Assembly (NCBI GenBank): GCA_945872365.1 | Contig: CAMBZJ010000003.1 | Location: 7,301-71,300 of the forward strand | DNA: 64,000 nt | Reading direction: 5' to 3' | Source of the DNA: Klebsiella pneumoniae | GTDB taxonomy: Bacteria > Desulfobacterota > Binatia > UBA12015 | Shown: positions 6-47,331 of the stretch, in pieces | Numbering within the stretch: position 1 is the stretch's first letter | Layout of the letters: every line of letters starts with the position of its first letter | The notes under the pieces: generated by a model | Databases searched by the model: none | Told to the model about the DNA's origin: nothing | The model's input: only the letters and a program-made list of their open reading frames with translations | Program-made: the position numbers and the translations under genes

Positions 6-1010
6 ATGCCGATCGACTCGAAGCGCGCGCGCTGGGCGACGCGGACCGACCCCAAGTGGTGGCTCTTCCACGTCGAGCCGGAGAAGCTTCCCGAGTTGGT
101 CGCGCCCGGCGAGACGATCGGGCGCATCACCGCGCAAGCCGCCGCCGAGACCGGAATCCCCGCCGGCCTGCCGCTGGTCGCCGCCTCGAACGACAAGGCC
201 TGCGAAATCCTCGGCGCCGGCTGCCTCGTGCCGGAGACGGCCTGCATCAGCTTCGGGACGACCGCGACGATCAACACCCACAATCACCGCTACGTCGAGG
301 TGCAGCGGCTCATGCCGCCCTACCCCTCGGCCGTCCCCGGGCACTTCTACTCGGAGATCGGCATCCTGCGCGGGCTCTGGATGGTCTCCTGGTTCAAGGA
401 GGAGTTCGGGCACCCCGAGCGGCTGCGTGCGGCCGAGGAGAACGTGGCGCCGGAGACGCTCTTCGACGATCTCCTGCGCCGCGTGCCACCGGGTGCGATG
501 GGACTCGTGCTGCAGCCCTACTGGACGCCCGGGCCCGACCTCGCGTCCTACGCCAAGGGTTCGATCATCGGCTTCGGCGACATCCACACCCGGGCGCACC
601 TCTACCGCGCGATCATCGAGGGGCTCGTGTTCGCCCTGAAGGAAGGTGCGGAACTCACCGAGAAGCGGAACCGGGTGCCGATCCAACGCATCCGGGTCGC
701 CGGCGGCGGCTCGCAGAGCGACGGCATCGTGCAGATCACGGCCGACGTCTTCGGACTCCCCGTCGAGCGACCCCACACCCACGAGACCTCGGTCGTCGGT
801 GCGGCGATCGACGCGGCGGTGGGACTCGGACTGCATCCCGACTTCGAGCGGGCCGTCGCCGAGATGACCCGCGTGAGCCGGGTCTTCGAACCGGATGCGG
901 CCCATGCGGCGATCTACCGCGATCTCTACGGGCGCGTGTATCGCAAGATGTACGACCGCCTGCTGCCCCTGTTCCGCGAGATCCGGGAGATCACCGGCTA
1001 TCCCGAGTGA
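6..1010 (+). CDS. FGGY-family carbohydrate kinase (C-terminal part; the 5' end lies outside the window)
   Basis: The ORF runs to the left window edge. Its translation carries the FGGY C-terminal domain signature (conserved GGG/GA motifs such as ...VAGGGSQSDGIVQITADVFGLPVERP...). The N-terminus is missing. Confidence 0.75.
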   Translation: MPIDSKRARWATRTDPKWWLFHVEPEKLPELVAPGETIGRITAQAAAETGIPAGLPLVAASNDKACEILGAGCLVPETACISFGTTATINTHNHRYVEVQRLMPPYPSAVPGHFYSEIGILRGLWMVSWFKEEFGHPERLRAAEENVAPETLFDDLLRRVPPGAMGLVLQPYWTPGPDLASYAKGSIIGFGDIHTRAHLYRAIIEGLVFALKEGAELTEKRNRVPIQRIRVAGGGSQSDGIVQITADVFGLPVERPHTHETSVVGAAIDAAVGLGLHPDFERAVAEMTRVSRVFEPDAAHAAIYRDLYGRVYRKMYDRLLPLFREIREITGYPE

Positions 1011-25680: not shown

Positions 25681-26070
25681 TCAGGCCGGGCGCACCCGCT
25701 TCAGCCACTCCAGATCGCGCTTCACCCAGACGTAGACCAGCCCGACGAACAGGATCCCGATGAAGAGCAGGAGTTCGGCCAGCACCTGGAGTCCCCGTCC
25801 CTCCAGCACGTACTTCCGGAAGGCGACGGCAACCGGGTAGACGAACGCCACCTCGACGTCGAAGACGACGAAGATCAGGGCGATCAGGTAGAACCGGATG
25901 TTGAAATTGATCCAGGCGCTCCCCGAGGGGGGCTCGCCGCACTCGTAGGTCGAGAGCTTGCGGCGCTCCGGGTTCGACGGCCGCAGGAGCCACCCCAATC
26001 CGAGCATGAGCCCGGCCGTGATGGCGCCCAGGAGGATGTAGACCAGGACGTTGGCGAACTCGAAATTCAC
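25681..26070 (-). CDS. nuoA: NADH-quinone oxidoreductase subunit A
   Basis: The product is a 129-aa three-TM protein (YECGEPP...[10 protein letters not shown]). Confidence 0.9.
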
Positions 26071-26274: not shown

Positions 26275-27078
26275 CTAGTCGCCGCGCAGTCGTTCGCGGA
26301 ACTCCCGGGAGAGCGGCAGAACCACGGTCTGCCCGGTCACGTCGTTGGGGGCGACGTACAACTCGGTCTCGTAGACCGCGCAGAGGCGCGCCCATGTCAG
26401 GACCTCGGCGGCCGAGCCGGCGGCGACGACTTCGCCCCGCGACAGCAGGAGCAGGCGGTCGCAGTACATGGACGCGAGATTCAGGTCGTGGACGACGAGC
26501 CCGACCGCGCGCCCCTCGCGCGCGAGGTCGCGCACCAGGTCGAGCAGCAGCACCGCGTGGCGCAGGTCGAGAAAAGCGGTCGGTTCGTCGAGCAGCAGGA
26601 CCGGGGCCTGCTGCGCGAGGGCGCGTGCGAGGACCACGCGCTGGCGTTCGCCGCCGGAGAGCTGCTCGATCGGACGCTCGGCGAACTCGAGCGTCTCCGT
26701 GCGCCGCATCGCCTCGATCGCCGCCCGATGGTCCTCCGGCCCCTCCCAGCCGAAGGCGCCGGTATGCGGAGCGCGCCCGAGCAGGACGAGGTCGCGCGCC
26801 TCCATCGGGAAGGCGACGTGCGTCTCCTGGGGCACGACCGCGATCCGGCGGCCGCGCTCGCGCGCCGAGATGTCGAGCAGCGGGCGTCCGTCGACGCGAA
26901 CCTCGCCCTCGTCGGGCGAGCGAACCCCCGCGAGCACGCGCAGCAGCGTCGACTTCCCCGATCCGTTGGGGCCGATGATGCCCAGGATCTCCCCGGGAGC
27001 GATCGCTGCGTCGACCCGGCGCAGCGCCTCGCGGAGGCCGTAGCGGACGGTGACGCCGCTCGCCTCGATCGCACTCAA
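26275..27078 (-). CDS. ABC transporter ATP-binding protein (FecE/BtuD-type, iron-chelate or cobalamin importer family)
   Basis: A TTG start at 27078 overlaps the permease stop as TTGA. The product has Walker A GPNGSGKST, the signature LSGGERQRV and Walker B LLLDEP. The large upstream part of the tracked ORF is shadow. Confidence 0.85.
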   Translation of the reverse strand: MSAIEASGVTVRYGLREALRRVDAAIAPGEILGIIGPNGSGKSTLLRVLAGVRSPDEGEVRVDGRPLLDISARERGRRIAVVPQETHVAFPMEARDLVLLGRAPHTGAFGWEGPEDHRAAIEAMRRTETLEFAERPIEQLSGGERQRVVLARALAQQAPVLLLDEPTAFLDLRHAVLLLDLVRDLAREGRAVGLVVHDLNLASMYCDRLLLLSRGEVVAAGSAAEVLTWARLCAVYETELYVAPNDVTGQTVVLPLSREFRERLRGD

Positions 27079-28133
27079 GAGTCGGCCCACCCCGTCGAGC
27101 GCAGCGCCTGGCGGCGCAGCATCACGAGGAAGAAGGGGCCGCCGCAGAGCGCGGTGACCACGCCCACCGGGAGCTCGGCCGGGGCGAGCAGCGTGCGGGC
27201 GAGGGTGTCGGCGAGCACGAGGAAGGCGGCACCGGCCCACATCGAGCCCGGCAGCAGGAGCCGCTGGTCGCCTCCGACGGCAAGTCGCACCAGGTGGGGA
27301 ACGATCAGACCGACGAAGCCGATCATGCCCGACGAAGGAACCGCCCCGGCCACCAGGAGCGCGACCGCGAGGTAGACGCGACGCCGCGCGCTCGCCACGT
27401 CGACGCCGAGGCTCGCCGCCCCCTCGTCCCCGAGCGAGAGCACGTTCAGGTCGCGGGCGCTCGACGAAAGCAGGAGAAGCCCCGCCGCGAGGGTGATCGC
27501 CGCGAGAGCGCTCCACGCGGCGCCGCGGACCGAGATGGCGCCGATCACCCAGGAGAGAATCCCGCTGCCGCGATCGACGTCGGAGAGCGCGTGCACGAAG
27601 GTGATGAGCGCGGCCGCGAACGAGTTGAACACGACGCCGGTGAGCAGCAGGCTGGTCGGGTTCACCGCACCGGCTGCGCCCGCGACACGCTGCACCAGCG
27701 CTGCCGTCGCGAGGGCACCGGCAAAGGCCGCCGCCGGCACGACCATGAGCGCCCCACGGCCCCCGAAGGCGGCCCCCGCAGCCCCGATCGGCACGAGCAG
27801 GGTTGCGGCGATGCCCGCGAGCGCGGCGCCACCGGAGATGCCGAGGACGTGCGGGCAGGCGAGCGGGTTGCGCAACAAGGCCTGCAGACCTGCTCCGGCG
27901 AGACCGAGCGCGCCGCCGACGAGCGCCGCGAGAAGGATGCGCGGGGCCCGCGCACCGACGAGGATGACGTGCGCGGGGTCGTCGGCCGGGGCCCGCCAGG
28001 CGGCGAGCGGGTCGATGCGCACCGGGCCCACCGAAAGCGCGGCGAGGATCACCGCCACGAGCACCAGCAGGCCGAGCAGGTGCAGGACCGCAGCGCGACC
28101 CGGACCGCGGCGCGCGACTGCCGACGAGTTCAC
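27075..28133 (-). CDS. FecCD-family ABC permease (iron-siderophore / B12 type)
   Basis: The product is a ~350-aa polytopic protein with FecCD motifs (...NPLACPHVLGISGGAALA..., ...GFVGLIVPHLVRL...). The start is a GTG at ~28133; it is uncertain by 1 nt because of a local reading ambiguity at 28131-28150. Confidence 0.8.
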   Translation of the reverse strand: MNSSAVARRGPGRAAVLHLLGLLVLVAVILAALSVGPVRIDPLAAWRAPADDPAHVILVGARAPRILLAALVGGALGLAGAGLQALLRNPLACPHVLGISGGAALAGIAATLLVPIGAAGAAFGGRGALMVVPAAAFAGALATAALVQRVAGAAGAVNPTSLLLTGVVFNSFAAALITFVHALSDVDRGSGILSWVIGAISVRGAAWSALAAITLAAGLLLLSSSARDLNVLSLGDEGAASLGVDVASARRRVYLAVALLVAGAVPSSGMIGFVGLIVPHLVRLAVGGDQRLLLPGSMWAGAAFLVLADTLARTLLAPAELPVGVVTALCGGPFFLVMLRRQALRSTGWADS

Positions 28134-29245
28134 GGGGCCCCCGCCCCGTGACCGCCGCCCGCTGCGGACGGCACCGCCGCCGTCGACTCCCGGGCCGGGG
28201 GTACAAAAGGAAGCGTGCCTTCCCACACCAGGGTCTCGATCTCGCGGGCCGATTCGCCGAGATGGGGCCCCGGGCGCAGCAGCGAGGCCGACCGGACCGG
28301 GCGGATCCGTTTCTCGCGGACGGCCGGCAGCGATTCGAAGGATTTCCACCAGGCGAACAGGGCCGAACCTCCCTCGGAACCCATCGCGCCGTCGAGGATG
28401 ACGTCGGGCGCGCCGGCCACCACCGCTTCGAGGGACAGTCGGGGCCAGCGCTGGCCCGCCCCTGCGGCGACGTTGGTCGCACCCGTCGCGCGCAGCAACT
28501 CGTCGAGGAACGTTCCCTCGCCGACGACCAGCAGCGGATCGTGTCCGACCACGAAGAGTACGCGACGCGCCCCACGGTGCGCGCTGCGCACGCGCACCTC
28601 CTCGATCTCGCGGCGCAGGCGCTCGACCAGCGTGCGTGCCTCCGGCTCCCTTCCCACCCAGCGGCCGACCTCGATCATCGCGCGCCACGCATCTTCGAGC
28701 GTCGCCTCGCCGACCATCGCGACCGGCACGCCGAGCGTGCGCAGGCGCTCGACGGCGACGCGGTTGCTCGGGGTCGGCACGCCGAGAACGACGCCCGGTC
28801 GCAGGGAGAGGATCGTCTCGACCGAGGGTTCGAGATAACTGCCCGCGCGCGGCAACTCGCGCGCCCCGGGCGGGATCTCGCACTGGTCGGAAACGGCGAC
28901 CAGGCGATCCTCGGCGCCGAGGGCGAAGATCGTCTCCGTGACCGACGGGGCGAGCGAGACGATGCGGCGGGCGCCATCGACCGGGGGAACCGGCTGGTCG
29001 ACGAAAGGCGGCGGGAGCGGCGTGGCGGGAAGCGCCGGGGACCCATCCGCCGCAACCGCCGGCACGGGTGAACCAGCCGGGGGTGCTGCGGGAAGCGTCG
29101 ACGCGGCACCCGTGGAGCCGGCAGACACGACGACCAAGGCGAGCAGAAGTGCCCGGCACGCCCCGCGCCGGTGGATCGTGCCCCCGCCCGGGCCGGGGCG
29201 CGACCTGCACCACGCCCCGGGATCGATGCCCCGTCGGCCCGCCAC
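28130..29245 (-). CDS. periplasmic substrate-binding protein of the ABC importer (BtuF/FecB-like, class III SBP)
   Basis: The GTG at 29245 is preceded by GAGAGG. The product has an RR-containing N-region plus a hydrophobic signal, a Pro/Ala-rich linker, then a BtuF-like fold (IVSLAPSVTETIFALGA..DRLVAVSD). Confidence 0.75.
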   Translation of the reverse strand: MAGRRGIDPGAWCRSRPGPGGGTIHRRGACRALLLALVVVSAGSTGAASTLPAAPPAGSPVPAVAADGSPALPATPLPPPFVDQPVPPVDGARRIVSLAPSVTETIFALGAEDRLVAVSDQCEIPPGARELPRAGSYLEPSVETILSLRPGVVLGVPTPSNRVAVERLRTLGVPVAMVGEATLEDAWRAMIEVGRWVGREPEARTLVERLRREIEEVRVRSAHRGARRVLFVVGHDPLLVVGEGTFLDELLRATGATNVAAGAGQRWPRLSLEAVVAGAPDVILDGAMGSEGGSALFAWWKSFESLPAVREKRIRPVRSASLLRPGPHLGESAREIETLVWEGTLPFVPPARESTAAVPSAAGGGHGAGAP

Positions 29246-29373: not shown

Positions 29374-30588
29374 TCAGAAGCTCAGGATCACGTCCATGCC
29401 GAAGATGCCCGTGTTCACCGGCAGGCCGGCCGGATTGTTCGCGCTCTCGGTCGAACCGGGCCCCCACTGGTAGCGACCCTCGGGGCGCAGCGTCAGGTTC
29501 GGCAGCGGCTTGATATTGAAGCCCGCGGTGACCTCGTAATAGTCGACCGACTGGTTGCGGTACCACTCCGCCCGGGCCCCCACGCCGAGTTCGTCCATGA
29601 TCGAGTAGAGCAGGTAGTTCGTGATGCCGGCCGTATTGTAGTGGCCGTCGCCGTTGTCGATCTGGGTCAGGTCGCTCAACAGGACGTAGGAAAGGTTCTC
29701 GTACGGCTTGGTGTTGATCACGATGCTGTGGGTGTAGCCCGAACCGATCCAGCCGAGGTCGCCGGCCGTGAGCAGGTAGGTGGCCGACAGCCAGTCCCAG
29801 GGCGCGTAGCTCAGGCCGCCCACGAAGTTGTTGCCGCCCTTGTACTGGTCGAAGCCGGTATCCCAGCCCAGCGTGTAGCCGCCCCACAGCGTGAGTTTCT
29901 CGATGCCGGTGTAGCTCGCGAGAGCACCGGTGTGGGTGAAGGGCTCGCTCAGGTACATGGTCATCGCGTGGCTGAAGAAGAAGTTCCCGGTCGCGGGCAC
30001 GACTTCGTAGCCTAGCGGCGTATAGAAGTGACCACCCTTTACGGAGACGTCCTTGTAGGCCGCTTCGAGGTAGGCCTGTGGAATCGCGAAGCCGTAGATG
30101 CCCTTGGTCATGCGGCCCGAGAAGTCGTACTTGCCGAAGCGGTTGCCGAAGGCCTGCGTGTCCTGAGCGTCGGTGCCGTAGACGAAGTCGACGCGGCCGC
30201 CGAGGTCGAAGCCGTTCTTGCCGTCGACCTTCTTCTCGGCGTAGAGCCAGCTCTGCTGATTGCGGAACCCGTTGGGGTGCTTGTCGAACAGGCCGTCGGA
30301 GTTGGTGTAGGTGCTCTGCTGTACCCATCCCCCGATGTCGTAGAGCGACTCGTCCCCGAACAGCGACTTGCCGAGGTCCCAGCCAGCGCCCTTGTTGCTG
30401 AGCGTCGAGATCACGGGGGCCTCGTAGTAGCCCGGGCCGAGGTTGCGGGACGGAGCGGCCTCCACGGGCGCGGCGCCCGGCTTCTGGTCGACGTCCTCCG
30501 CTTCTTCTGCCGCCCAGCCCAAGGCGGGAAACGCGAGGGCCGCACAGGCCAGCATTCCGATCACTCGTCTCGTCAAGGTCGATCTCAT
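29374..30588 (-). CDS. outer-membrane beta-barrel porin-like protein
   Basis: The ATG at 30588 follows GGAGGAAA. The product has a signal peptide (VIGMLACAALAFPALGWAAEE), alternating aromatic/Gly-rich beta-strand patterns (WGGYTLGWDTGF, YLLYSIMDELGVGARAEWY) and a C-terminal Phe (ILSF). Confidence 0.65.
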   Translation of the reverse strand: MRSTLTRRVIGMLACAALAFPALGWAAEEAEDVDQKPGAAPVEAAPSRNLGPGYYEAPVISTLSNKGAGWDLGKSLFGDESLYDIGGWVQQSTYTNSDGLFDKHPNGFRNQQSWLYAEKKVDGKNGFDLGGRVDFVYGTDAQDTQAFGNRFGKYDFSGRMTKGIYGFAIPQAYLEAAYKDVSVKGGHFYTPLGYEVVPATGNFFFSHAMTMYLSEPFTHTGALASYTGIEKLTLWGGYTLGWDTGFDQYKGGNNFVGGLSYAPWDWLSATYLLTAGDLGWIGSGYTHSIVINTKPYENLSYVLLSDLTQIDNGDGHYNTAGITNYLLYSIMDELGVGARAEWYRNQSVDYYEVTAGFNIKPLPNLTLRPEGRYQWGPGSTESANNPAGLPVNTGIFGMDVILSF

Positions 30589-30855
30589 GATGGTTTCCTC
30601 CAGGTTCGTCGGCCGCCATGCTGCGCTCGGGGCGCGCAGCCTGACCCAGCAACGCACATGCCACCGCGAAGTCGGCCGGATCGGGCGGAAACCCACGCCG
30701 CGATGCCGCCCTTGCGGATGCGTGCCTGTTTAGCGGGCAGCAGTTGCCGCCGGAGTGGGCGGTCCTTCGTCCGGCAGCGGCGCATCCGGCCCCGCGGCAG
30801 GCACCCGCGCCGTTCGGCTCGCCCCGCTGCGCGCGGGCAAGCCCCGCCGCAGCGC

Positions 30856-31542
30856 CTACGACTTACCGGGGGAGCGACGACGGGTCTTCGGCGTCGGCGG
30901 CGCGGCGGCGCGCGGGCGCAGTCGCCGATTGGCCGGCTTGACCTTGGGCTTCGTCCCAGCGACGCCCCGCTCGTCCGGACCGGCCGGCTTCGCCGCAGCG
31001 AGCAGGGACCTCACGCGGCCCCCCAGGATCGCGCCGAGTCCGCCCCGCGCCGCCGACGGCCGAACATCCTCCGCGTCGTTCGGGCCGGTTTCGCCGGGCA
31101 GGAGGGCTGCGAGCGGCGGAAAGGACCCCAGCATCTCGAGCCAGGAGGACGGGGCCGGGGTGTCGCGTCCGGACCTGCCGCCCGGCGCGACGCCGCGAAA
31201 CGCGTCTTCGGCCCACCGGGCCAGTTCGGCGTAGCCGTCGAGCGCACGCTCGGCGATGACCGCGATCTGCCCGCTCCTCTCGGTCGGTGCGCCCGCCTGC
31301 CGCTCCACTTCGGCGATGAGCGCGTCGAGACGGGCGAGATGGCCGCGGAAGACCTCCGGCAGGCGCTCGGGCGACCGGGCCTCCGCCGCGCCGGACGCGA
31401 CCGGTCGACGACGCGCGCGCCGGCCGGTAGCGGGCGCGGCCCCGGTCGCCCGCGCGACGGCGGCAGGAGGCGACGTGTTCTTCGCCCGGGACTTCTCGGG
31501 CTTGCGCCGCCGGGGCGGCGTTTTGCGCCCGTCCTTTGCCAT
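30856..31542 (-). CDS. Lys/Pro/Ala-rich histone-H1-like / phasin-like protein (hypothetical)
   Basis: The ATG at 31542 gives MAKDGRKTPPRRRKPEKSRAKN... A central predicted helical segment (LARLDALIAEVERQAG) is followed by a KP-rich tail (TKPKVKPANRRLRPRAAAPPTPKTRRR). Codon bias supports the minus strand; the rest of the tracked 533-aa ORF is shadow. Confidence 0.45.
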   Translation of the reverse strand: MAKDGRKTPPRRRKPEKSRAKNTSPPAAVARATGAAPATGRRARRRPVASGAAEARSPERLPEVFRGHLARLDALIAEVERQAGAPTERSGQIAVIAERALDGYAELARWAEDAFRGVAPGGRSGRDTPAPSSWLEMLGSFPPLAALLPGETGPNDAEDVRPSAARGGLGAILGGRVRSLLAAAKPAGPDERGVAGTKPKVKPANRRLRPRAAAPPTPKTRRRSPGKS

Positions 31543-31583
31543 CTCCGCTCCCGATCGGCCCCTACCTGCCCGGCGGCCGCCGG

Positions 31584-32687
31584 TCAGACGGGTGCGTCGA
31601 GAAGTGCTGCCGCGATCTCGCGCAGCGCGGGCGCCTCTGGCGTGTAGCGGACGCACAGGCTCTGCGCCCGTTCGCTGTGGAAGCGCAGGCGGTGCTCGAC
31701 GACGAAACCGGCCCCGCCGTGGAGGTGGTGCGCCGCCCAGCAGATCCGCTTGAACGCCTGTCCGACCCAGGCGACGGCACTCGTCATCTCCATGTCGCGC
31801 TCGCGACCCGAGGCGATCCGGGTGATCGCCTGCCAGGCGAGGTGGCGCGCCGCGGTGTGGGTGGTTCCCATGTCCGCGACCTGATGGCGAACGGCCTGGA
31901 AGATCGCGATCTTCTGGCCGAATTGCTCGCGCTGCTTCACGTACTCGACGGTCATGTCGAGCACCGCGCTCATGCCGCCGGTCATCTCGGCGAGTGCGAG
32001 CGCGGTCTGCACGCGCCACACCCGGTCGAGGACGTCCGCGCCGCCGCGCGCCGACGCGATCTCGCGCACCACCGCCGCGTCCCGGTAGTGGACGTGCGCC
32101 TGGCGGTCGCCCCCGAAGGTCCGCAAGGGCTGCAACGACACGCCGGCCGAGCGGCGGTCCACCACGACGAACACCGGCTGGCTTGCCGCGCGCGAAGCGA
32201 CCAGGTGGAACTCCGCTTCCGCCGCGTCGGGCACGTAGGCCTTGCCGCCGCTCACGATGCGCGCCGCGGGCGATCCGCCGAGGCGCGTCGAGAAGCGCCC
32301 TGGGTCGCGATCCCGGATCTCGTCGATGGCGACCGCGAGGCGGCTCTCGCCGCGCCCGATCGGCCCGAGCAGCGGATCGTCCGGGGCGATGGCCGCGAGC
32401 ACGTTGGCCGAACGGATCGCCCCGAGGAGCGGTCTGGGCAACAGTCCACGCGCGCACTCCTCGACCAGGCTCGCGACGTCCACCAGGTCGGCGCCGCCGC
32501 CGCCCGCGGCAGCCGGGAGTCCGAGGGCGATCCAGCCCAAGTCGGCGACCGTGCGCCCAAGGGCTGGATCGAAACCCGTCGCGTCGGACTCCCAGCGCAG
32601 GAGCTTGTCCGGGTCGACCTCGCGGGAGAGCACCTCGCGCGCGGCGGCCTGGAGTTCGCGCTGCTCCGTTGATGGTTCCGGCCTCAT
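31584..32687 (-). CDS. acyl-CoA dehydrogenase family protein (smaller partner of an ACAD pair)
   Basis: The ATG at 32687 overlaps the upstream ACAD stop as ATGA. The product has an ACAD C-terminal helical domain (IFQAVRHQVADM, WAAHHLHGGAGF). Confidence 0.75.
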   Translation of the reverse strand: MRPEPSTEQRELQAAAREVLSREVDPDKLLRWESDATGFDPALGRTVADLGWIALGLPAAAGGGGADLVDVASLVEECARGLLPRPLLGAIRSANVLAAIAPDDPLLGPIGRGESRLAVAIDEIRDRDPGRFSTRLGGSPAARIVSGGKAYVPDAAEAEFHLVASRAASQPVFVVVDRRSAGVSLQPLRTFGGDRQAHVHYRDAAVVREIASARGGADVLDRVWRVQTALALAEMTGGMSAVLDMTVEYVKQREQFGQKIAIFQAVRHQVADMGTTHTAARHLAWQAITRIASGRERDMEMTSAVAWVGQAFKRICWAAHHLHGGAGFVVEHRLRFHSERAQSLCVRYTPEAPALREIAAALLDAPV

Positions 32688-33856
32688 TTGCGCGGCAACC
32701 CGTAGCCGAGGAAGCCGATGATGTCGCGCTGCACCTCGTTCGTGCCTCCGCCGAAGGCGAGCATCGGCGCGATGCGATACAGCCACTGCATGCGTCCCTC
32801 GACGAGCGCGCTCGGCTCCTCGGGGTGCAACTGCCCGTCGAGACCGAGGATCTCGCAACCCGCGTCGGCGATGCGCTGCACCAGCTCGGAGACGAACACC
32901 TTCGCCATCGACGACTCGGCCGCCGGCATCCGCCCCTGCTCGAGCGCCCACGCGGTCTCCAGGCCCAGCATCCGCCCCGCCTCCAGGTCGACCTGCAGTC
33001 GGGCGAGCCGGTCGCGCACCCAGGGTTCGTCCTTCAGCGGACGGCCGTCCACCTCGCGCTCGCGCACCAGCTGCACCAGGTTGCGGAACATGCGTCGGCC
33101 CATGCCGACCGAGCCGATCGCCAGCCGCTCGAAGTTGAGCGCCATCGCCGCGTAGTAGAAGCCGGCACCGCGCTCGCCGACCAGGTAGCTGCGCGGCACG
33201 CGCACGTTGTCGAGGAAGAGTGCGTTGGTGCGCAGCCCCGGCCAGACCCAGATCGGCTGGACGCTCACGCCGGGCGCATCCATCGGCACGATCATCATGG
33301 AGATGCCCTTGTGCTTGGGGGCATCGGGCTCGGTGCGCACGGCGAGCCAGTTGTGGGTCGCCGTGTGGGCCATCGTGTTCCACATCTTCTGCCCGTTGAC
33401 CACCCACTCGTCGCCGTCGAGGACCGCATGGGTGCGCAACGACGCCATGTCGGTGCCGGCCTCAGGCTCGGAGTAGCCGAGTGCGAAGTCGATCTCGCCG
33501 GCGTTGATGCGGGGCAGCCACTCGCGCTTCTGCTGTTCGTCGCCGACGCGCATGATCGTCGGCGCGACCGAGGTGACGGTCAACGGCAGCATCGGCGCCC
33601 CGGCCGATTCGATCTCGTCGATGAAGATCCACTGCTCGACCGCGCTCTTCTCGAGCCCGCCGTACTGCTTCGGCCAGGCGATGCCCCACCAGCCGGCGTC
33701 GCGGAGCGCGCGGTGAAAACGGAGCGCGAGAGGGCCGCGCCCCTCGTTGCCCTTGAGCCGCGTCTCGCTCGCGAGGCCCGGATCGACGTTCTCGCGAATG
33801 AAGGCCCGCACCTCGTCACGCCAGGCCGCTTCACCGACCGTGAGTTCGTAGTCCAT
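32684..33856 (-). CDS. acyl-CoA dehydrogenase
   Basis: The product is a full three-domain ACAD (YSEPEAGTDMASLRT, WNTMAH, GGGTNEVQRDIIG). Confidence 0.85.
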   Translation of the reverse strand: MDYELTVGEAAWRDEVRAFIRENVDPGLASETRLKGNEGRGPLALRFHRALRDAGWWGIAWPKQYGGLEKSAVEQWIFIDEIESAGAPMLPLTVTSVAPTIMRVGDEQQKREWLPRINAGEIDFALGYSEPEAGTDMASLRTHAVLDGDEWVVNGQKMWNTMAHTATHNWLAVRTEPDAPKHKGISMMIVPMDAPGVSVQPIWVWPGLRTNALFLDNVRVPRSYLVGERGAGFYYAAMALNFERLAIGSVGMGRRMFRNLVQLVREREVDGRPLKDEPWVRDRLARLQVDLEAGRMLGLETAWALEQGRMPAAESSMAKVFVSELVQRIADAGCEILGLDGQLHPEEPSALVEGRMQWLYRIAPMLAFGGGTNEVQRDIIGFLGYGLPRK

Positions 33857-33959
33857 GCGCGCAAGGGTGCCACGGCCTCCGTCGAATGCAAAACCCGCAC
33901 CCGGCCAACCGAGCCGGCGGGGGAGGCAACGGCGGGCGAGCGTTGACGGCCTCTCGACC

Positions 33960-34892
33960 GTGCACTACGGACACGCGGTGGTCGGCGTGCGCCTCGTGAT
34001 CGTCACCGGCAAGGGCGGCGTCGGCAAGACCACGGTGACCGCGGCGCTTGGACGGGCGGCCGCGCGACGCGGCCTGCGCACCCTGCTGGTCGAGATGGCT
34101 TCGCCGGGGCGGCTCGCCCACGTGCTCGCCGCGTCGAAACTCGGCCCCGAGCCGCAGCGCGTCTCGCAACGGCTCGACGCGGTGGCGCTCGACGCCGATC
34201 ATGCACTCTCGGTGTTCGTCCACTCGATCATGCCGCTGCGCGCCCTCTCCGGCGCCCTGCTCGCGAGCGACACCTTCCGCATCGTCGCCGCCGCGGTACC
34301 CGGCATCGCCGAGGCGGCGATGCTGGCGCAGGTGCTCGACTGGCTCGAACCGCGCGGGTTCCGACGCGCGGGCTGGGACCGTATTATCCTCGACGCACCC
34401 GCGAGCGGGCACTCGGCACCACTCTTCGCGACGCCCGGGACCCTCGGCGGGATCGCCTCGGTCGGCCCCCTCGCACAGTCCCTGCAGCGGATCTCGAAGT
34501 GGCTGCACGACCCGGGACGCACGACCGCGATCGTCGTCGCGCTGCCCGAGGCCTGGGCGGTCGCGGAGGCGATCGAACTCCACCAGCGATTGCGCGACGA
34601 GGCCGGGGTGCCGCTCGCGCGCCCGGTCGTGAACGCGGTCTTCCCGCGACGCTTCACGAAGGCGGACGAGGAGCGGCTGCACGAGGCCGGGAGCGACCGT
34701 GTCGGCGCCCCGGGGCCGCTCGCGGCTGCGCGCTACTTCCTGCGGCGACGCGAGGACGAGCAGTCGCAGGTCCTCGCCCTGCGCCGCGGCACCGGCGAAC
34801 CGCCGCTCGAGTTGCCGTTCCTCTTCGACCCCGAGATGCGGCTGGAACACCTCGACCCGATCGCCGACGCCCTCGACGAGGTCCTTCCATGA
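33960..34892 (+). CDS. ArsA/Get3-family P-loop ATPase, half-size
   Basis: The product has the deviant Walker A VTGKGGVGKTT and an ArsA-type DAPASGH motif (compare DTAPTGH). The start codon is uncertain (GTG at 33960, 33978 or 33987). Confidence 0.7.
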   Translation: MHYGHAVVGVRLVIVTGKGGVGKTTVTAALGRAAARRGLRTLLVEMASPGRLAHVLAASKLGPEPQRVSQRLDAVALDADHALSVFVHSIMPLRALSGALLASDTFRIVAAAVPGIAEAAMLAQVLDWLEPRGFRRAGWDRIILDAPASGHSAPLFATPGTLGGIASVGPLAQSLQRISKWLHDPGRTTAIVVALPEAWAVAEAIELHQRLRDEAGVPLARPVVNAVFPRRFTKADEERLHEAGSDRVGAPGPLAAARYFLRRREDEQSQVLALRRGTGEPPLELPFLFDPEMRLEHLDPIADALDEVLP

Positions 34893-36127
34893 GTCGGACG
34901 AAACGCGGCGCGGGCGAACCGGCCGGCGGCCTCACCCCGGGCGACTGGCTCGGCGAGACGCGGGTGCTGGTCTGCCTCGGCTCGGGTGGCGTGGGCAAGA
35001 CCACCACGGCGGCGGCGCTGGCGATCGCGGCCGCCATGGCGGGCCGCCGCACGGCCGTCCTGACAGTCGACCCGGCGGCCCGACTGAAGGATGCGCTCGA
35101 ACTTCCCGACCGCCCCGGAGTTCTCCACCCGGTGCCGTTGCCGGCCACGGCGCGCGGCTCGCTCGACGCCGTACTGCTCGATGCGAAGGGATTGTTCGAC
35201 AACCTCGTGCGGCGCCTCGCGACCGACGCCGCCCTCGCCGAGCGGATCGTGCGCAACCCGGTCTATCGCAACGTGGCCGGGGCCTTCGCCGGCTCCGACG
35301 CCTACATGGCCCTCGAACAGGTGCTCGACCTCGCCCGGAGTCCGGAGCACGACCTGGTGGTCGTCGACACGCCGCCGGCGAGCCATGCGCTCGAACTCTT
35401 CGATGCGCCCCAGAAGATCCTCGCCCTGCTTCAGTCGCGGGCACTCGAGTACCTCGAGGAACCCGGCCGGATCCTCGGCAACGCGACCTCGCGGCTCGCG
35501 CGCGGCCTGCTCGCCGGCGTCGTCGCGGCCCTCGAGCGACTCACCGGTCTCACGCTCATGCGCGACCTCTCCTCGCTCGCCTCGGACTTCTCGGAGGTGG
35601 CGCCGCGCTTTCGCGACCGGGCCGCCGCGATCCGCGACCTCCTGCACGCGCCGACGACGCGCTACGCGCTCGTGGCCGCGCCCGACCCGCACGCGGCCGA
35701 CGACGTCCTCGCCTTCGCGGGCGAGGTCGATCGGCTCGGCATCCGCTGCGACGCCGTCGTCCTGAATCGCATGTTCTCGCTCGACGCCACGCCGCCGGCC
35801 GTACGCCCGCCCGGGCGGCGGCGTGCGTCGACGGCAGGCGAAGAGTGGCCGCCCGGGATCTCGCGGCGCGTCGCCGAGTGCGCCCGCAACCTAGAGACGA
35901 TCGCCGAGGGCCAGCGGCGCGTGGTGGATCGCCTGCGCGACGGCCTTGACGACCTCGACCTGCGGCGCGGCGGCACGGCGCCGCGGCACTGGCTCGAGCT
36001 TCCGGCGCTGCGACCGGCTCCCGTCACGCTGGCCGAGATCACCGGGCTCGCCCTGCGCCTCGGCGCCGACCTGCGACCCAACGATCCCGCCGGCGGAGGG
36101 GCGAAGCGCCGTCGGCCCGCCGGGTGA
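34889..36127 (+). CDS. ArsA/Get3-family P-loop ATPase, second half-size paralogue with a C-terminal extension
   Basis: The ATG at 34889 overlaps the upstream stop as ATGA. The product has Walker A LGSGGVGKTT and a DTPPASH motif. The upstream 130 aa of the tracked ORF is in the other gene's territory. Confidence 0.75.
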   Translation: MSRTKRGAGEPAGGLTPGDWLGETRVLVCLGSGGVGKTTTAAALAIAAAMAGRRTAVLTVDPAARLKDALELPDRPGVLHPVPLPATARGSLDAVLLDAKGLFDNLVRRLATDAALAERIVRNPVYRNVAGAFAGSDAYMALEQVLDLARSPEHDLVVVDTPPASHALELFDAPQKILALLQSRALEYLEEPGRILGNATSRLARGLLAGVVAALERLTGLTLMRDLSSLASDFSEVAPRFRDRAAAIRDLLHAPTTRYALVAAPDPHAADDVLAFAGEVDRLGIRCDAVVLNRMFSLDATPPAVRPPGRRRASTAGEEWPPGISRRVAECARNLETIAEGQRRVVDRLRDGLDDLDLRRGGTAPRHWLELPALRPAPVTLAEITGLALRLGADLRPNDPAGGGAKRRRPAG

Positions 36128-36131
36128 CCGC

Positions 36132-36524
36132 TCAGCGACGCGGCTTGGGCGTGGCGCGCGCGACCTGGCGGGGCCGGCGGCGGGGCGCCGCGCGGTCCGC
36201 GCCCGTCGCCTGCGGGGCCGGCGTGTTGGCCGCGATCAGGCGGTCGAGCTTGATGTTCAGGTTGACCAGGCTGCCCTGGAGCGCCTCGACCTTGGCATTC
36301 AACGCCGAGAGGTCCTGGCGGCTCGGGACGTTCAAGGTCGAGAGCAGCACCTGCATGTTGCGGTCGACCGTACCCTTCGTGCGCGCCGCCCGGTTGAGCG
36401 TGGCGCCCAGCGCCTCGGCGACCTGGGGGCTCGACAGGAGGTCGCCCAGCAGGCTGCCCATCCGATCCTCGCCCACGCCCAGCAGGCGCTGCCAGAGACT
36501 GTCCGCTGCCCTGCCTTTCGACAT
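36132..36524 (-). CDS. phasin-family (PHA-granule-associated, PhaF/PhaI N-domain-like) protein
   Basis: The motif ...LSTLNVPSRQDLSALNAKVEALQGSLVNLNIKLDRL is phasin-like. The product has a basic Pro-rich tail and is 130 aa. Confidence 0.6.
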   Translation of the reverse strand: MSKGRAADSLWQRLLGVGEDRMGSLLGDLLSSPQVAEALGATLNRAARTKGTVDRNMQVLLSTLNVPSRQDLSALNAKVEALQGSLVNLNIKLDRLIAANTPAPQATGADRAAPRRRPRQVARATPKPRR

Positions 36525-36605
36525 GATCGCTCCTCTCGAGGATCCATTCGCCCGACGGTCGGCCTTGCACTACAGTCGCGCCATGGGGTGGTCAAGGTGA
36601 GTGCG

Positions 36606-36842
36606 GTGACGAACTTGCTCGGCTGGTTGAGCGGGCTGCTCTTCGTCGCCCCGCAGTTGCGCGACGAGCCCACGGTGCTCGCCGCGACCGCGATCACCAT
36701 GCAGATCACCTACGGCATCACCCTGCACTTCTTCGCGGCCATGACCGGCCGCGACCGACGCCTCTGGGGACTGGCCGGACTCTTCGGCGGCATCCCGGCG
36801 GTGGCAGCACTGCTCCTGCTCATGGAGACGTCGCCGGACTGA
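36606..36842 (+). CDS. small hypothetical two-TM membrane protein
   Basis: A GTG follows AAGGTGAG. The product is hydrophobic (LLGWLSGLLFVAPQL...GLAGLFGGIPAVAALLLLM). The call is weak. Confidence 0.3.
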   Translation: MTNLLGWLSGLLFVAPQLRDEPTVLAATAITMQITYGITLHFFAAMTGRDRRLWGLAGLFGGIPAVAALLLLMETSPD

Positions 36843-36864: not shown

Positions 36865-37248
36865 CTAGTCCTCGGCGACGACGAAGGCGATCGCCGTCCC
36901 CGCCGCATGGGAGAGCGACAGGCACCAGCGCCGCACGCCGCGGACCCGCGCGGTCCCAAGCGCCCGGCCGGTCAACTCGAGGCGCGGCGGCCCGTCGGGG
37001 TCGCGCACGACCTCGATGTCGAGCCATCCGGCACCCTGGCCCCAGCCCACACCGAGCGCCTTCATCACCGCCTCCTTGGCCGCGAAACGGGCGGCGTAGC
37101 TCTCCACGCGACCCCGCCCCCGACCCTCGCAATAGCGGCGCTCCCGCGGCGTGAATACGCGCTCTCGAAAGCGCTCGCCGTGCGCTCCCGCGGTCGCGCG
37201 CTCGATCCGCGCGATCTCGACCAGGTCCACTCCGGTCCCGAGCACCAT
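36865..37248 (-). CDS. acpS: holo-[acyl-carrier-protein] synthase (4'-phosphopantetheinyl transferase)
   Basis: The product starts MVLGTGVDLVEIARIE... and has the FTPRE...KEAVMKALG signature typical of AcpS. It is 127 aa. Confidence 0.85.
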   Translation of the reverse strand: MVLGTGVDLVEIARIERATAGAHGERFRERVFTPRERRYCEGRGRGRVESYAARFAAKEAVMKALGVGWGQGAGWLDIEVVRDPDGPPRLELTGRALGTARVRGVRRWCLSLSHAAGTAIAFVVAED

Positions 37249-37262
37249 TTGCGTAGCTCGGC

Positions 37263-38978
37263 TCAGCAGGCGCCGCACGAGGTGCAGGTCGCCACGTCGC
37301 AGGGGTGGGTCTCGCGCTCGAGCAGCGCCTTGCGCCATTCCGAGAGCAGAAAGCGCTTGTCGACGCCGTGGTCGATGAAGTCCCACGGCAGGCGCTCCGC
37401 CGCATCCCAGCGACGGTGGACGAAGTGGTCCGGGTCGGGCAGTCCGTCGGCGCCGCGTGCGCGACGCGCCCCCTGTACGACCGGCCAGAAGCGCCCGCCC
37501 TCGCGGTGCGCCGCGAAGATCAGCGTGGCCACCGAGCGATCGCCGCGCGAGAGCAGCGTCTGCCAGAACGCGTCGCGCGGCGACTCGAAGTCGACCGTCG
37601 CGCCGGGAATCCGGGAGGCGGCCGATTGCAGGAGCCGCGCGCGGTCCCGCAGGACCCGGAGGTCCTCCATCGGCTCCCACTGCAGGGGTGTCCAGGGCTT
37701 GGGCACGAACGGATTGATCGACAGCGTGATGCGCCCGACGCCGCCCGGCAGCCGGGCGCGGATCAAGGCGGCGAGATCCGCGATCGCCGTCACGTCGGCG
37801 TCGGTCTCGGTCGGAAGCCCGATCATCGAGTAGAGCTTGAGCGCGCGCACGCCGCTGCCGGCGAGCAGCGTCGCCGCGCGCAGGATCTCCTCCTCGGTCA
37901 GGTTCTTGTTGATCACCCGCCGCATGCGCTCGCTGCCCGCCTCGGGAGCGATCGTCACCGAGCGCGTCTCGCCGCTGCCGAGGGCCGCCGCGAGTTCGGG
38001 GCCGACCAGGTCGGCCTTGAGCGACGAGGGCGAGGCGCGGCCGCCGCGCCGGGCGATCTCGCTGCAGAGCGCCGCGATGCCCGGTTGGCTCGCCATCTCC
38101 GCGCCGACCAGGCCGACCGTCCTGCGCTGCGGAAGCGCCTCCTCGATGACCGTCCTGCGCAGCGACTCCTCGCTGCGGTGGCGCACCGGCCGGTACATGA
38201 AGCCCGCGGCGCAGAAGCGACAGCCCCACTCGCAGCCGCGGCTCGCCTCGACGACGAACATGTCGCCGAAGACCGCCTCGGGGGTGAGGATGCGGGTCTG
38301 GGTCGGCGCATCGTCGAGGCGCGCGACGTAGCGGCGACGCACCCGCGGTGCGGTATCGTCCCCGGGGGTGCGACGATCCGGCAGGTAGGCGCCCCCGACG
38401 TCGGCCGAGGCCTCGAGCATCCCCGGTCGACCGACCGAGCGGCCGCCGCAGGCCCGCACCGCGCGGAGCCAGTCGACGAGCATCTCCTCGGCTTCGCCGA
38501 TCAGGAACAGGTCGACGAAGGGCGCGATCGGCTCGGGGTTCAGGAAGGTCGCCGGACCACCCGCCATGACGAGCGGTGCGCGCTCGTCGCGTCCGGCGCG
38601 CCAGGGGTCGAGTCCGGCGCCGGCCAGGAGGTCGACCAGGTGGACGTAGTCGGACTCGAAGGAGATCGAGAAGGCGAGCACGTCGAACGAGGAGAGCGGG
38701 CGCCCGCTCTCGAGCGAACGCGCCCGCCGGGACGCTCCCGCATCCGGCAGGAACGCTCTTTCGACCGAGACGCCGTGGGCGGCGAGGATCGAGTAGACGG
38801 CCTGAAAGCCCAGGTTCGCCATCCCGACCGGGTAGACGTTCGGGTAGACGAGGCACACGTCGAGGTCGCCGCCGTGCACCGGACGCGGCCCCAGGTGCAC
38901 CTCGCGGGCAAGACGGTCGCGATCCGACGGAACCAACGGCACGACCAAAGGAGTAGCCCCGCTGGCCGCGGCCGACAA
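37263..38978 (-). CDS. B12-binding-domain radical SAM protein (class B rSAM)
   Basis: The N-terminal cobalamin-binding-like domain (CLVYPNVYPVGMANLGFQAVYSIL) is followed by the radical-SAM cluster motif CEWGCRFC. The C-terminus is Cys-rich (HPCDVATCTSCGAC). Confidence 0.8.
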   Translation of the reverse strand: MSAAASGATPLVVPLVPSDRDRLAREVHLGPRPVHGGDLDVCLVYPNVYPVGMANLGFQAVYSILAAHGVSVERAFLPDAGASRRARSLESGRPLSSFDVLAFSISFESDYVHLVDLLAGAGLDPWRAGRDERAPLVMAGGPATFLNPEPIAPFVDLFLIGEAEEMLVDWLRAVRACGGRSVGRPGMLEASADVGGAYLPDRRTPGDDTAPRVRRRYVARLDDAPTQTRILTPEAVFGDMFVVEASRGCEWGCRFCAAGFMYRPVRHRSEESLRRTVIEEALPQRRTVGLVGAEMASQPGIAALCSEIARRGGRASPSSLKADLVGPELAAALGSGETRSVTIAPEAGSERMRRVINKNLTEEEILRAATLLAGSGVRALKLYSMIGLPTETDADVTAIADLAALIRARLPGGVGRITLSINPFVPKPWTPLQWEPMEDLRVLRDRARLLQSAASRIPGATVDFESPRDAFWQTLLSRGDRSVATLIFAAHREGGRFWPVVQGARRARGADGLPDPDHFVHRRWDAAERLPWDFIDHGVDKRFLLSEWRKALLERETHPCDVATCTSCGAC

Positions 38979-46065: not shown

Positions 46066-47331
46066 TCAGTCAGCCTGCTTCCGCAGGAACGTCGGGATGT
46101 CGTACTCCGACTCGTCCTCGACCATGCTCCCGCCGCGGGCCGTCGCCTCTTCCTCGGGGCTCTCGTCGGCCTTGCGGCGATGCCATACCGGGTTTTCGCC
46201 GTCGTCGACGATGGTGCCCATCTTTACCACCCGGCGCGGTCCGTACTCGCGACCGAGGCCGCGAGCCACCGTGCCCTGGACGATCGGGACCGGGCCGCGA
46301 CGCGCATCGGCCGGCTGCGCCGCCTGCGCGGTCATGCGATCCGCCGGCGCCTGCACCTTCATGCGATCCGCCTCGCCGAACCCGGTCGCGATGACCGTGA
46401 TCCGCAACTGGTCGCCCATCGACTCGTCGATCACCGCACCGAAGATGATGTTCGCATCGTCGTCGGCCTCCTCCTGGATGAGGGTCGCCGCCTCATTGAC
46501 CTCGTGCAGCGTGAGGTCGGGGCCGCCGGTGATGTTGATCAGCACGCCGCGCGCGCCCTGGATCGAGATGTCGTCGAGCAGCGGCGAGGAGATCGCGCGC
46601 TGCGCTGCTTCGATGGCCCGGTTCTCGCCCGAGGCGATCGCGGCACCCATCATCGCCATGCCCATCTCGCTCATGATCGTTCGCACGTCGGCGAAGTCGA
46701 GGTTGATCAGGCCGTGCACGGTGATCAGGTCGGAGATGCCGCGCACCGCCTGGAGGAGCACGTCGTCGGCTTTCTTGAAGGTCTCCATGATCGGCATGTT
46801 GCGGCCGGAGACCGAGAGGAGGCGCTGGTTGGGAATCGTGATGAGCGTGTCCACGGTCCGCTTGAGTGCCTGGATGCCCTCCTCGGCCTGCATCATGCGG
46901 CGCTTGCCCTCGAAGATGAAGGGCTTCGTGACGACGCCCACGGTGAGGGCACCGAGTTCACGAGCGGTCTGCGCGATCACCGGTGCGCCACCGGTTCCGG
47001 TACCACCGCCCATGCCCGCGGTGACGAAGACCATGTCCGCGCCGAGCAGCAGGTCGCGGATCGTGTCCACGTCTTCGACCGCCGACTCGCGACCGACCGC
47101 CGGGTTCGCGCCTGCGCCGAGCCCCTTGGTGATCGACGTCCCGATCTGGAGTTTCACCGTCGCCAGGTTCGCGGCGAGCGCCTGCGCATCGGTGTTCGCG
47201 GCGATGAAATCCACCCCGGGCATGCCCGACTGGATCATCGTGTTCACGGCATTGCCGCCGCCACCACCCACGCCGACGACCTTGATGCGCGCTCCACCGT
47301 GTCCACCACCGCCGATCTTGTCCATCATCAC
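46066..47331 (-). CDS. ftsZ: cell division GTPase FtsZ
   Basis: The product has [11 protein letters not shown] and the tubulin signature GGGTGTG. It has an acidic C-terminal peptide ([11 protein letters not shown]). Confidence 0.95.

Follow-up and report, generated by a model that had tools for sequence, protein, structure and literature searches.

What would two half-size ATPases of the ArsA/Get3 type, encoded side by side without any arsenic-resistance gene and facing a small basic phasin-like protein, act on in the bacterium that carries them? The pair lies in a 64-kb stretch of contig CAMBZJ010000003.1 (hereafter the window), which has a G+C content of about 71% and whose genes have their nearest named relatives in metagenome-assembled genomes (MAGs) of Candidatus Binatia. 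An earlier sequence-only reading of this DNA had proposed a split, heterodimeric targeting or partitioning ATPase dedicated to phasin-coated granules. Judged from sequence and predicted fold, the pair is a distant homologue of BagA/BagB of Mycobacterium tuberculosis (Rv3679/Rv3680) and not a new kind of ATPase. A split Get3-like heterodimer is already known, and the new part is the Binatia-specific gene set around it, in which the phasin-like gene is a non-random, fixed neighbour of the BagB-like gene throughout the sampled Binatia clade. We favour, at slightly better than an even chance, the reading that the Binatia-lineage BagAB heterodimer uses ATP to handle amphipathic or hydrophobic helices at the surface of lipids, that it serves glycerolipid homeostasis, and that the phasin-like protein is its likeliest partner or client.

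Both ATPases clear the PF02374 (ArsA_ATPase) cut-off of 24.3 bits (Table 1). As had been described, they are adjacent single-domain proteins encoded on the plus strand, and their genes overlap stop-to-start in ATGA at 34889-34892. The motifs read earlier are present in the translations, namely P-loop GKGGVGKTT and switch II DAPASGH in the BagA-like protein (subunit A), and P-loop GSGGVGKTT and switch II DTPPASH in the BagB-like protein (subunit B). The pair is real, and its span had been drawn from 33960; the GTG at 33978 is the preferred start of the BagA-like gene, because the N-termini of homologues and the gene call on L170, a near-identical contig of 226 kb with the same genes and the same gene calls, agree on it. 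No further ArsA-like gene was detected elsewhere in the 64-kb window by tblastn.

The kinship with BagAB was supported by models, structures and gene order. The top NCBIfam model was BagA (NF053622) for the first protein, with 86.6 bits against an equivalog cut-off of 400, and BagB (NF053621) for the second, with 215.7 bits against 521. When compared with sequences in the PDB, the BagB-like protein matched 6bs3_B, that is, M. tuberculosis Rv3680, with an E value of 3e-43, the runner-up being at 1e-13. A Foldseek search with its AlphaFold2 (AF2) model (pLDDT 79) also returned 6bs3_B first (E 1e-18, TM 0.76, 30% identity), followed at ranks 2-50 by archaeal and eukaryotic Get3 proteins (E 1e-12 to 1e-9). 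The BagA-like protein, used as a single sequence, scored slightly higher with ArsA/ARSA1-type proteins than with 6bs3_A, and a profile of the BagA family built from eight members placed 6bs3_A (Rv3679) first, with 117 bits and an E value of 7e-33. The A-then-B gene order recurs in about 50 loci of other lineages among the matches listed, mostly from Actinomycetota and Myxococcota.

BagAB stands for 'bacterial Get3-like A and B', and the structure of the M. tuberculosis proteins and their characterisation as Get3 homologues are credited in PMC10597346 to Hu et al. 2019 (J Bacteriol 201:e00159-19). The title of PDB entry 6BS3 reads 'ADP-bound bacterial Get3-like A and B in Mycobacterium tuberculosis', with related entries 6BS3-6BS5. 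The supposition that no such pair had been described does not survive, since the window pair belongs with M. tuberculosis BagAB, whose heterodimer structure was solved in 2019. As summarised in PMC10597346, bagAB shields M. tuberculosis from the toxic effects of glycerol metabolism and of nitric oxide (Whitaker et al. 2020, J Bacteriol 202:e00202-20). M. tuberculosis BagAB has also been associated with altered drug survival in transposon sequencing (Tn-seq), and the literature searched names no client or mechanism for it.

The window shares with M. tuberculosis two adjacent and co-oriented half-size genes, A then B, without ars context, and a signature lysine that is present in subunit A only; the best matches in sequence, profile and fold are the corresponding M. 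tuberculosis subunits. In addition, the glycerol-toxicity phenotype of M. tuberculosis echoes the GlpK and acyltransferase neighbours of the Binatia loci. The two systems differ in that their identity is only about 30-40%, in that subunit A of the window keeps a histidine in switch II (DAPASGH, compared with DAPPTGR in M. tuberculosis and in 14 other loci outside the Binatia clade), and in that the C-terminal ~110 residues of subunit B have no sequence alignment to M. tuberculosis BagB. Unlike the actinobacterial BagAB loci, those of the Binatia clade have fixed neighbours, which encode the phasin-like protein, a small membrane protein, an acyltransferase, the holo-acyl carrier protein (ACP) synthase AcpS, and a radical S-adenosylmethionine (SAM) protein.

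Database entries name such proteins 'anion-transporting ArsA/GET3 family ATPase', which would make the pair an arsenite/antimonite (anion) pump ATPase split over two genes. The PF02374 matches, the matches to ArsA structures (E 1e-14 to 1e-15), the likeness of DAPASGH to the DTAPTGH-type switch II of ArsA and the organisation as two homologous halves with pseudo-dimeric logic would all agree with this name. However, ArsA is a fused protein of ~580 residues, whereas the window has two genes; model TIGR04291 gave 35-45 bits against a cut-off of 650; and the closest structure is that of BagAB, not of ArsA. Neither arsB/ACR3 nor arsC, arsD or arsR was found within 10 kb on either side on the Pfam-annotated contig L170, as the sequence-only reading had already remarked for its own context, and the window holds no other ArsA-like gene. 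Subunit A has no cysteine and neither ATPase has a CxxC motif, and therefore both the metalloid-binding cysteine triad of ArsA and the zinc clasp of Get3 are excluded. Contradicted by the TIGR04291 scores, by the lack of ars genes nearby and by the cysteine-free subunit A, the pump reading is barely credible. With Get3/TRC40/ASNA1 the pair has in common the fold, the deviant Walker A GKGGVGKT of subunit A and a helical subdomain in the model, but it pairs two unlike chains where Get3 is a homodimer, lacks the CxxC zinc motif, has no identified counterparts of Get1, Get2, Get4 or Get5, and reaches 74.5 and 62.9 bits with TIGR00345, whose cut-off is 135. The part of the earlier proposal that saw a split heterodimeric ATPase of the Get3/ArsA fold, outside arsenic resistance, is the best reading of the two genes.

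In dimers of the MinD/Get3/ArsA type, the deviant Walker A motif has a signature lysine that works across the dimer interface. Among the family members at the different loci, this lysine was present in 49 of 52 A subunits and in none of 76 B subunits, so that GKGGVGKT (A) is paired with GSGGVGKT (B) in the window, and GKGGTGKS (A) with GAGGVGKT (B) in M. tuberculosis. As the lysine acts in trans and is kept only in subunit A, the heterodimer would therefore contain one complete and one incomplete composite site. We propose that the two subunits, coupled in translation, assemble into a pseudo-symmetric P-loop dimer in which, by analogy with the MinD/Get3/ArsA family, subunit A alone would give the trans-acting lysine and only the nucleotide in subunit B would see a complete composite active site. 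Binding and hydrolysis of ATP may move the helical subdomains from a closed form that holds the client to an open one that releases it, and back, in the manner of Get3. The AF2 model of the BagB-like protein places a helical subdomain between elements of the P-loop core.

Some observations on the diversity of the family were made in passing. A MAG labelled Candidatus Binatia bacterium (SPRUCE 133) carries a BagAB-like pair (L002:8572-12080) that falls outside the phasin-linked clade, has 38% identity to the window BagB, adjoins a FabF-like beta-ketoacyl-ACP synthase and has no phasin-like gene beside it, which suggests that the class Binatia contains two BagAB lineages. Three tandem ArsA/BagAB-like genes are present in an Acidobacteriota MAG (L050:6711-9633), and a BagB homologue of double length (P0094, 715 aa) is suggested by its Pfam list and size to be a natural A-B fusion, recalling the fused architecture of ArsA. 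A sister lineage of the Binatia BagB clade was found on a MAG contig of 71% G+C labelled 'uncultured Enterobacteriaceae' (L001, contig CAYQSE010000006.1), a taxonomic label that is almost certainly wrong.

To follow the surroundings of the pair, close relatives were gathered from contigs encoding related proteins and from a metagenome scan with an alignment of the phasin-like protein, which served as the reciprocal test and returned 80 loci. The matches listed from a profile scan of genome contigs with a BagB alignment were distant loci, mostly from Actinomycetota and Myxococcota, with no close relative among them. Relatives L081-L089 represent nine distinct genomic places, and their BagB identities range from 79 to 42%. 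The presence of a neighbour was counted only on contigs with enough flanking sequence, which was at least 0.6, 1.3 or 2 kb, as stated in each case.

A block made up of BagA, BagB, the convergent phasin-like gene, the divergent small membrane-protein gene, AcpS and the radical SAM gene is common to L081-L089. In the window, the phasin-like and BagB-like genes converge with their stop codons 4 nt apart. The phasin-like gene was immediately convergent with BagB in 31 of 31 metagenome contigs with at least 1.3 kb of flank (48 of 50 with at least 0.6 kb), and it abuts the BagB-like gene in eight of the nine distinct genomic places. On the other side of the phasin-like gene, where at least 2 kb of flank was required, the membrane protein was encoded in 29, AcpS in 31 and the radical SAM protein in 30 of 33 loci. 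The phasin-linked BagB sequences formed one clade in a neighbour-joining tree, which splits into 16 clusters when cut at 80% identity and into 4 when cut at 60%. Their identity to the window BagB goes down to 39%, overlapping with the 32-44% of homologues in other lineages, and the FtsZ of the deepest sampled subclade is nearest to Candidatus Binatia and Binatus entries. Within the clade the flanks have been remodelled by insertions of acyl-CoA dehydrogenase (ACAD), LLM or MoxR/VWA genes and by inversion of AcpS, and in L156 the radical SAM gene is 5.5 kb away. The adjacency of BagB and the phasin-like gene has persisted while both flanks were remodelled, which argues for selection without proving it. 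What is conserved in Binatia is thus a setting of genes for glycerolipid and ACP metabolism that adjoins the cell-division cluster.

How far does the neighbour of BagB deserve its name? The clear phasin motif that had been reported in this 130-aa protein corresponds to matches with PF05597 (22.3 bits, cut-off 28.8) and TIGR01837 (28.9 bits, cut-off 94.7) that are real but below threshold and limited to residues ~35-88, a segment of ~50 residues that aligns with the C-terminal part of the phasin models. The family has a strongly conserved core, TKGxVDRN...LNxPSRxD...L..K..A.QGSL.N...K.DRL, whose invariant part reads TKGxVDRN...LNxP..D...L..K..A.QG...N...K.DR, followed by a tail rich in Arg, Pro and Lys that has ~30 residues and a pI of 12.0 in the 130-aa protein. 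An AF2 model of low confidence (pLDDT 64) predicts helices at residues 6-30, 33-48, 55-63 and 69-100 and a disordered tail. A profile search yielded 548 proteins at E values of at most 1e-3 among 1.84 billion representatives, a small family. Among 64 remote relatives, 36 matched PF05597 at the same E value (best 1.1e-7), mostly below threshold, and 5 matched PHA_synth_III_E, matches to which coiled-coil composition may contribute in both cases. A search for Rosetta-stone fusions among the long matches of the profile returned only unrelated or artefactual proteins.

With the PhaF and PhaI phasins of Pseudomonas, the 130-aa protein has in common its small size, its helical nature and a coiled-coil motif of the type LN(L/V)PSRxD...L...(K)..L, and its basic tail recalls PhaF. 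The C-terminal domain of PhaF contains AAKP-like repeats, about eight in tandem, and binds DNA (PMC5658603), whereas the Arg/Pro-rich tail of the 130-aa protein contains none; moreover, its gene is not part of a pha cluster and, in the loci recovered, is tied to BagB, not to a polyhydroxyalkanoate (PHA) synthase. From these matches the label 'phasin-like' appears fair, while 'phasin' is not established.

A second protein, encoded by a 228-aa open reading frame (ORF) on the far side of the ACAD genes, had been described as a KP/AKP-rich, histone-H1-like protein of the PhaF-tail type, so that the ATPases seemed to be framed by two phasin/histone-like proteins. This ORF is genuine: the gene call on L170 includes it, a GGGAG stands 8 nt 5' of its ATG, and no indels separate it from a 95%-identical relative. 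Its product has a pI of 11.6, with basic ends, an acidic middle and one AAKP-like repeat. The profile comparison that both ATPases pass with PF02374, and in which the phasin-like protein stays under its cut-offs, gave no Pfam or NCBIfam match for the 228-aa product, PF01553 and the phasin and histone-like families included. Its helical core aligned with a 298-aa protein at the matching position in L081 (37% over 116 aa, E 8e-10), and the two can be aligned to the helical N-terminal part of the PF01553 acyltransferases of L082, L084, L086, L088 and L089, which occupy the same position and whose domain is intact in L082, L084, L086 and L089. The ORF has kept this N-terminal region and lacks the catalytic acyltransferase domain. 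Measured against the 95%-identical relative L090, its ratio of nonsynonymous to synonymous polymorphism (pN/pS) is 0.53, compared with 0-0.04 for the ACADs and 0.10 for BagB. On the evidence of alignment and substitution pattern, the 228-aa ORF is a truncated, fast-evolving and weakly constrained remnant of a PlsC/MGAT-type acyltransferase. The acyltransferase alignment and the single AAKP-like repeat rule out the histone-H1/PhaF-tail reading, and the supposed frame loses one of its two sides.

In the relatives, a PF01553 acyltransferase is encoded 5' of BagA in about 17 of 19 distinct loci, where its gene either diverges directly from BagA or is separated from it by inserted ACAD, LLM or MoxR/VWA genes. 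This acyltransferase has a marginal match to DAGAT (PF03982; 23.2 bits, cut-off 22), but PF01553 and DAGAT share one clan, so the match is weak evidence. In the Binatus-like subclade, the acyltransferase is directly divergent from BagA and is followed by GlpK, a genuine glycerol kinase that reaches 745 bits with NF000756 (cut-off 498), and by a lysophospholipase-L2-like hydrolase. The window itself encodes at 153-944 (+) a distant FGGY-family kinase match with 27% identity to Binatus-type GlpK over the C-terminal half; it is no orthologue of GlpK. Two deeper Binatia loci (L087:4399-6472 and L088:4887-6980) have genes for a MoxR/MadB-like AAA ATPase and for a VWA-domain protein divergently 5' of BagA, where they replace the acyltransferase or ACAD genes.

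The two ACAD genes of the window are coupled, as had been stated, by an ATGA overlap at 32684-32687, and they diverge from the ATPase pair. Heteromeric ACADs include PimC/PimD of Rhodopseudomonas palustris and the alpha2beta2 ChsE/IpdE enzymes of M. tuberculosis. As in these systems, two overlapping genes encode one complete ACAD and one with a degenerate middle domain, but the window pair scores far under the equivalog cut-offs, the small subunit reaching 85 bits with IpdE2 and 72 bits with pimD_small (cut-offs 450-653) and the large subunit 223 bits with pimC_large (cut-off 624). The ACAD pair is confined to the subclade of the window (BagB identity of at least 57%), where it is inserted between the acyltransferase and BagA, sometimes together with an F420-type LLM oxidoreductase. 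Being present in one subclade only, the ACADs do not belong to the core of the ATPase system.

What, then, could the pair be doing beside these genes? In the reading that we favour, the Binatia pair would have acquired a set of fixed neighbours, namely the phasin-like protein, a coiled coil ending in a basic tail, the small membrane protein with its three hydrophobic segments and a divergent PlsC/MGAT-type acyltransferase, and the surface at which it handles helices may be a membrane or neutral lipid, as the conserved neighbourhood suggests. The small membrane protein or the N-terminus of the acyltransferase may also be a partner or client. In the genome of the window, the acyltransferase has decayed to its 228-aa remnant, and the ACAD pair lies between this remnant and the ATPase genes. 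All the functional links come from gene neighbourhood in uncultured organisms, from which we infer the role of partner or client.

Several results weigh against this reading. The BagA-like and BagB-like proteins both score under the NCBIfam equivalog cut-offs, so that strict orthology to BagAB is not established, and the client-handling cycle would be an extrapolation from Get3. A GlpK orthologue and an intact acyltransferase are both absent from the 64-kb window by tblastn, the acyltransferase of the window being truncated. The phasin-like gene is convergent with the ATPase pair and not co-transcribed with it, and each conserved neighbour forms its own transcription unit. Wherever a phasin-linked locus could be placed, it was attributed to Binatia; the linkage thus appears confined to one class, and it could be inherited gene order beside the cell-division cluster instead of functional coupling. 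In L086, an insertion of 6.4 kb parts BagB from the phasin-like gene, which stays on the side of the membrane-protein, AcpS and radical SAM genes. Outside the clade, the surroundings of 80 listed loci were searched by tblastn, with family hidden Markov models (HMMs) and with a broad phasin-like HMM at E values of at most 1; about 50 BagAB-type pairs of other lineages among these matches had neither the phasin-like nor the membrane-protein, acyltransferase, AcpS or radical SAM neighbours within 10 kb on either side. Among the matches listed, homologues of the pair outside the Binatia clade thus lie without phasin neighbours, the very finding that the sequence-only reading had named as fatal to its proposal, whereas inside the clade the synteny is kept.

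The main rival is inherited gene order without a functional link. The pair would then be a generic BagAB-type ATPase with the same job as BagAB elsewhere, and the phasin-like, membrane-protein, AcpS and radical SAM genes would merely share a stretch of stable order where the division and cell wall (dcw) cluster of Binatia ends. Linkage within one class, four units transcribed separately in convergent or divergent orientation, ftsZ-ftsA-ftsQ lying directly past the radical SAM gene in many loci, BagAB of other phyla without these neighbours among the matches listed, and a phasin-like gene that remains with AcpS and the radical SAM gene after the L086 insertion would all agree with it. It accounts less well for an adjacency that holds down to a BagB identity of ~39%, which is within the range of 32-44% seen for other lineages, despite repeated remodelling of the flanks, or for a phasin-like family that was never met without BagB where the flank sufficed (31 of 31). 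We regard inherited order as rather unlikely. The insertion in L086 (L086:9966-15518) encodes a PLD-nuclease/helicase (PLDc_2, ResIII, DUF3427), an MBL-fold hydrolase and a glyoxalase-fold protein and looks like a mobile or defence-type cassette.

The original proposal, in which a Get3/ArsA-like ATPase would serve the targeting or partitioning of PHA or storage-lipid granules coated with phasin, could draw on the remote, sub-threshold resemblance of the neighbour to PF05597 and TIGR01837, which extends to 36 of its 64 remote relatives for PF05597, on the amphipathic helices and basic tail that make this protein loosely PhaF-like, and on the conserved acyltransferase, whose marginal DAGAT match would fit storage of neutral lipid rather than of PHA. 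Yet no gene for PHA synthase, PhaR or another regulator, or a depolymerase was present in any Pfam-annotated neighbourhood (the L081-L089 set and L170), although PHA or WS/DGAT genes may lie elsewhere in the genome. The phasin matches cover ~50 residues below threshold with a tail free of AAKP repeats, the second supposed phasin/histone-like protein is an acyltransferase remnant, the ACAD pair belongs to one subclade, and the DAGAT match has the weakness noted above. In the literature, no link was found between Get3/ArsA-type ATPases and phasins or bacterial lipid bodies, the matches being coincidental words. A granule role of the ATPase pair is unsupported, and a dedicated granule ATPase is improbable. 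The literature searches also found nothing on the Binatia gene set around BagAB.

The handling of helices at a lipid surface may be extended to the whole family in a bolder form, in which BagAB-family ATPases would be lipid-surface handlers tied to glycerolipid metabolism and, in Binatia, would place amphipathic proteins on membranes or neutral-lipid bodies, or remove them, together with the phasin-like protein and possibly also with the small membrane protein and with the helices at the N-terminus of the acyltransferase. We put this extension forward as a speculation, more doubtful than inherited gene order.

Table 1. Features of the window around the ATPase pair, with coordinates in the window, strand and supporting evidence.
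Feature	Coordinates	Strand	Evidence
228-aa basic ORF, truncated acyltransferase remnant	30856..31542	-	alignment with PF01553 N-terminal region of relatives
Acyl-CoA dehydrogenase, small/degenerate subunit (PimD/IpdE2-like)	31584..32687	-	PF00441 and PF02771; middle domain below cut-off
Acyl-CoA dehydrogenase, large subunit (PimC-like)	32684..33856	-	all three ACAD domains
Divergent intergenic region, 121 bp, between ACAD pair and ATPase pair	33857..33977		gene coordinates
BagA-like half-size Get3/ArsA-fold ATPase, 304 aa	33978..34892	+	PF02374 80 bits
BagB-like half-size Get3/ArsA-fold ATPase, 412 aa	34889..36127	+	PF02374 73 bits
Phasin-like protein, 130 aa	36132..36524	-	sub-threshold PF05597 and TIGR01837 matches
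Divergent intergenic region with conserved element TTGCACTACAGT / GAGTATAG(T) (TACAGT/TATAGT)	36525..36605		by eye in window, L081, L082, L084, L086, L087, L089
Small membrane protein, ~78 aa, three hydrophobic segments	36606..36842	+	called in L170; hydropathy
Holo-ACP synthase AcpS	36865..37260	-	PF01648 68 bits; NF000832 108.3 (cut-off 107); TIGR00516 79.9 (cut-off 59.8)
B12-binding-type radical SAM protein, TIGR03960-like	37263..38978	-	PF19864 121 bits; PF04055 69 bits; TIGR03960 322.6 (below cut-off 462)

The genes beyond the phasin-like gene complete the conserved block. The start of the small membrane protein is uncertain, with GTG codons at 36597 and 36606 as candidates. Homologues of ~80 aa occupy the same position across L081-L089 (for example, L081:9731-9979, L087:9528-9779 and L089:6105-6365), their genes diverge in every case from that of the phasin-like protein, and the protein matched no family of Pfam or NCBIfam. 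The element TTGCACTACAGT / GAGTATAG(T) in the divergent region may be a -10-like box 5' of the membrane-protein gene. No Rfam family was found in the window, the intergenic region 33857-33977 included.

In Binatia, acpS and the TIGR03960-like radical SAM gene usually lie 3' of ftsZ at the end of the cell-division cluster (for example, L082:10070-13628 and L089:6248-9775), with ftsZ-ftsA-ftsQ directly beyond the radical SAM gene in many relatives. The ftsZ gene of the window (46078-47292, -) is parted from acpS and the radical SAM gene by ~7 kb that carry PPK2, FMO/BVMO-like and DUF6502 genes. Upstream in window coordinates, before the acyltransferase remnant, the window encodes a BBP2/OmpL-like beta-barrel porin (29374-30696, -), then an uptake system of FecCD, ABC ATPase and periplasmic-binding protein (26275-29213, -), and then nuoA (25681-26070, -), an order that is common to the window, L081 and L086.

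Our findings correct two likely annotation errors, in that the pair does not encode arsenite pump subunits and the small neighbour is no evidence for PHA storage. The Binatia neighbours, which comprise GlpK, the PlsC/MGAT-type acyltransferase, the lysophospholipase-like hydrolase and AcpS, are absent from the actinobacterial loci listed and point independently to glycerol and glycerolipid metabolism. They also provide two concrete candidate partners for BagAB, the phasin-like protein and the small membrane protein, with which the question of its client becomes testable. If the wider role at lipid surfaces is true, it would give a first mechanistic handle on the glycerol poisoning of mycobacterial bagAB mutants, and a bacterial Get3-like system with an identified client.

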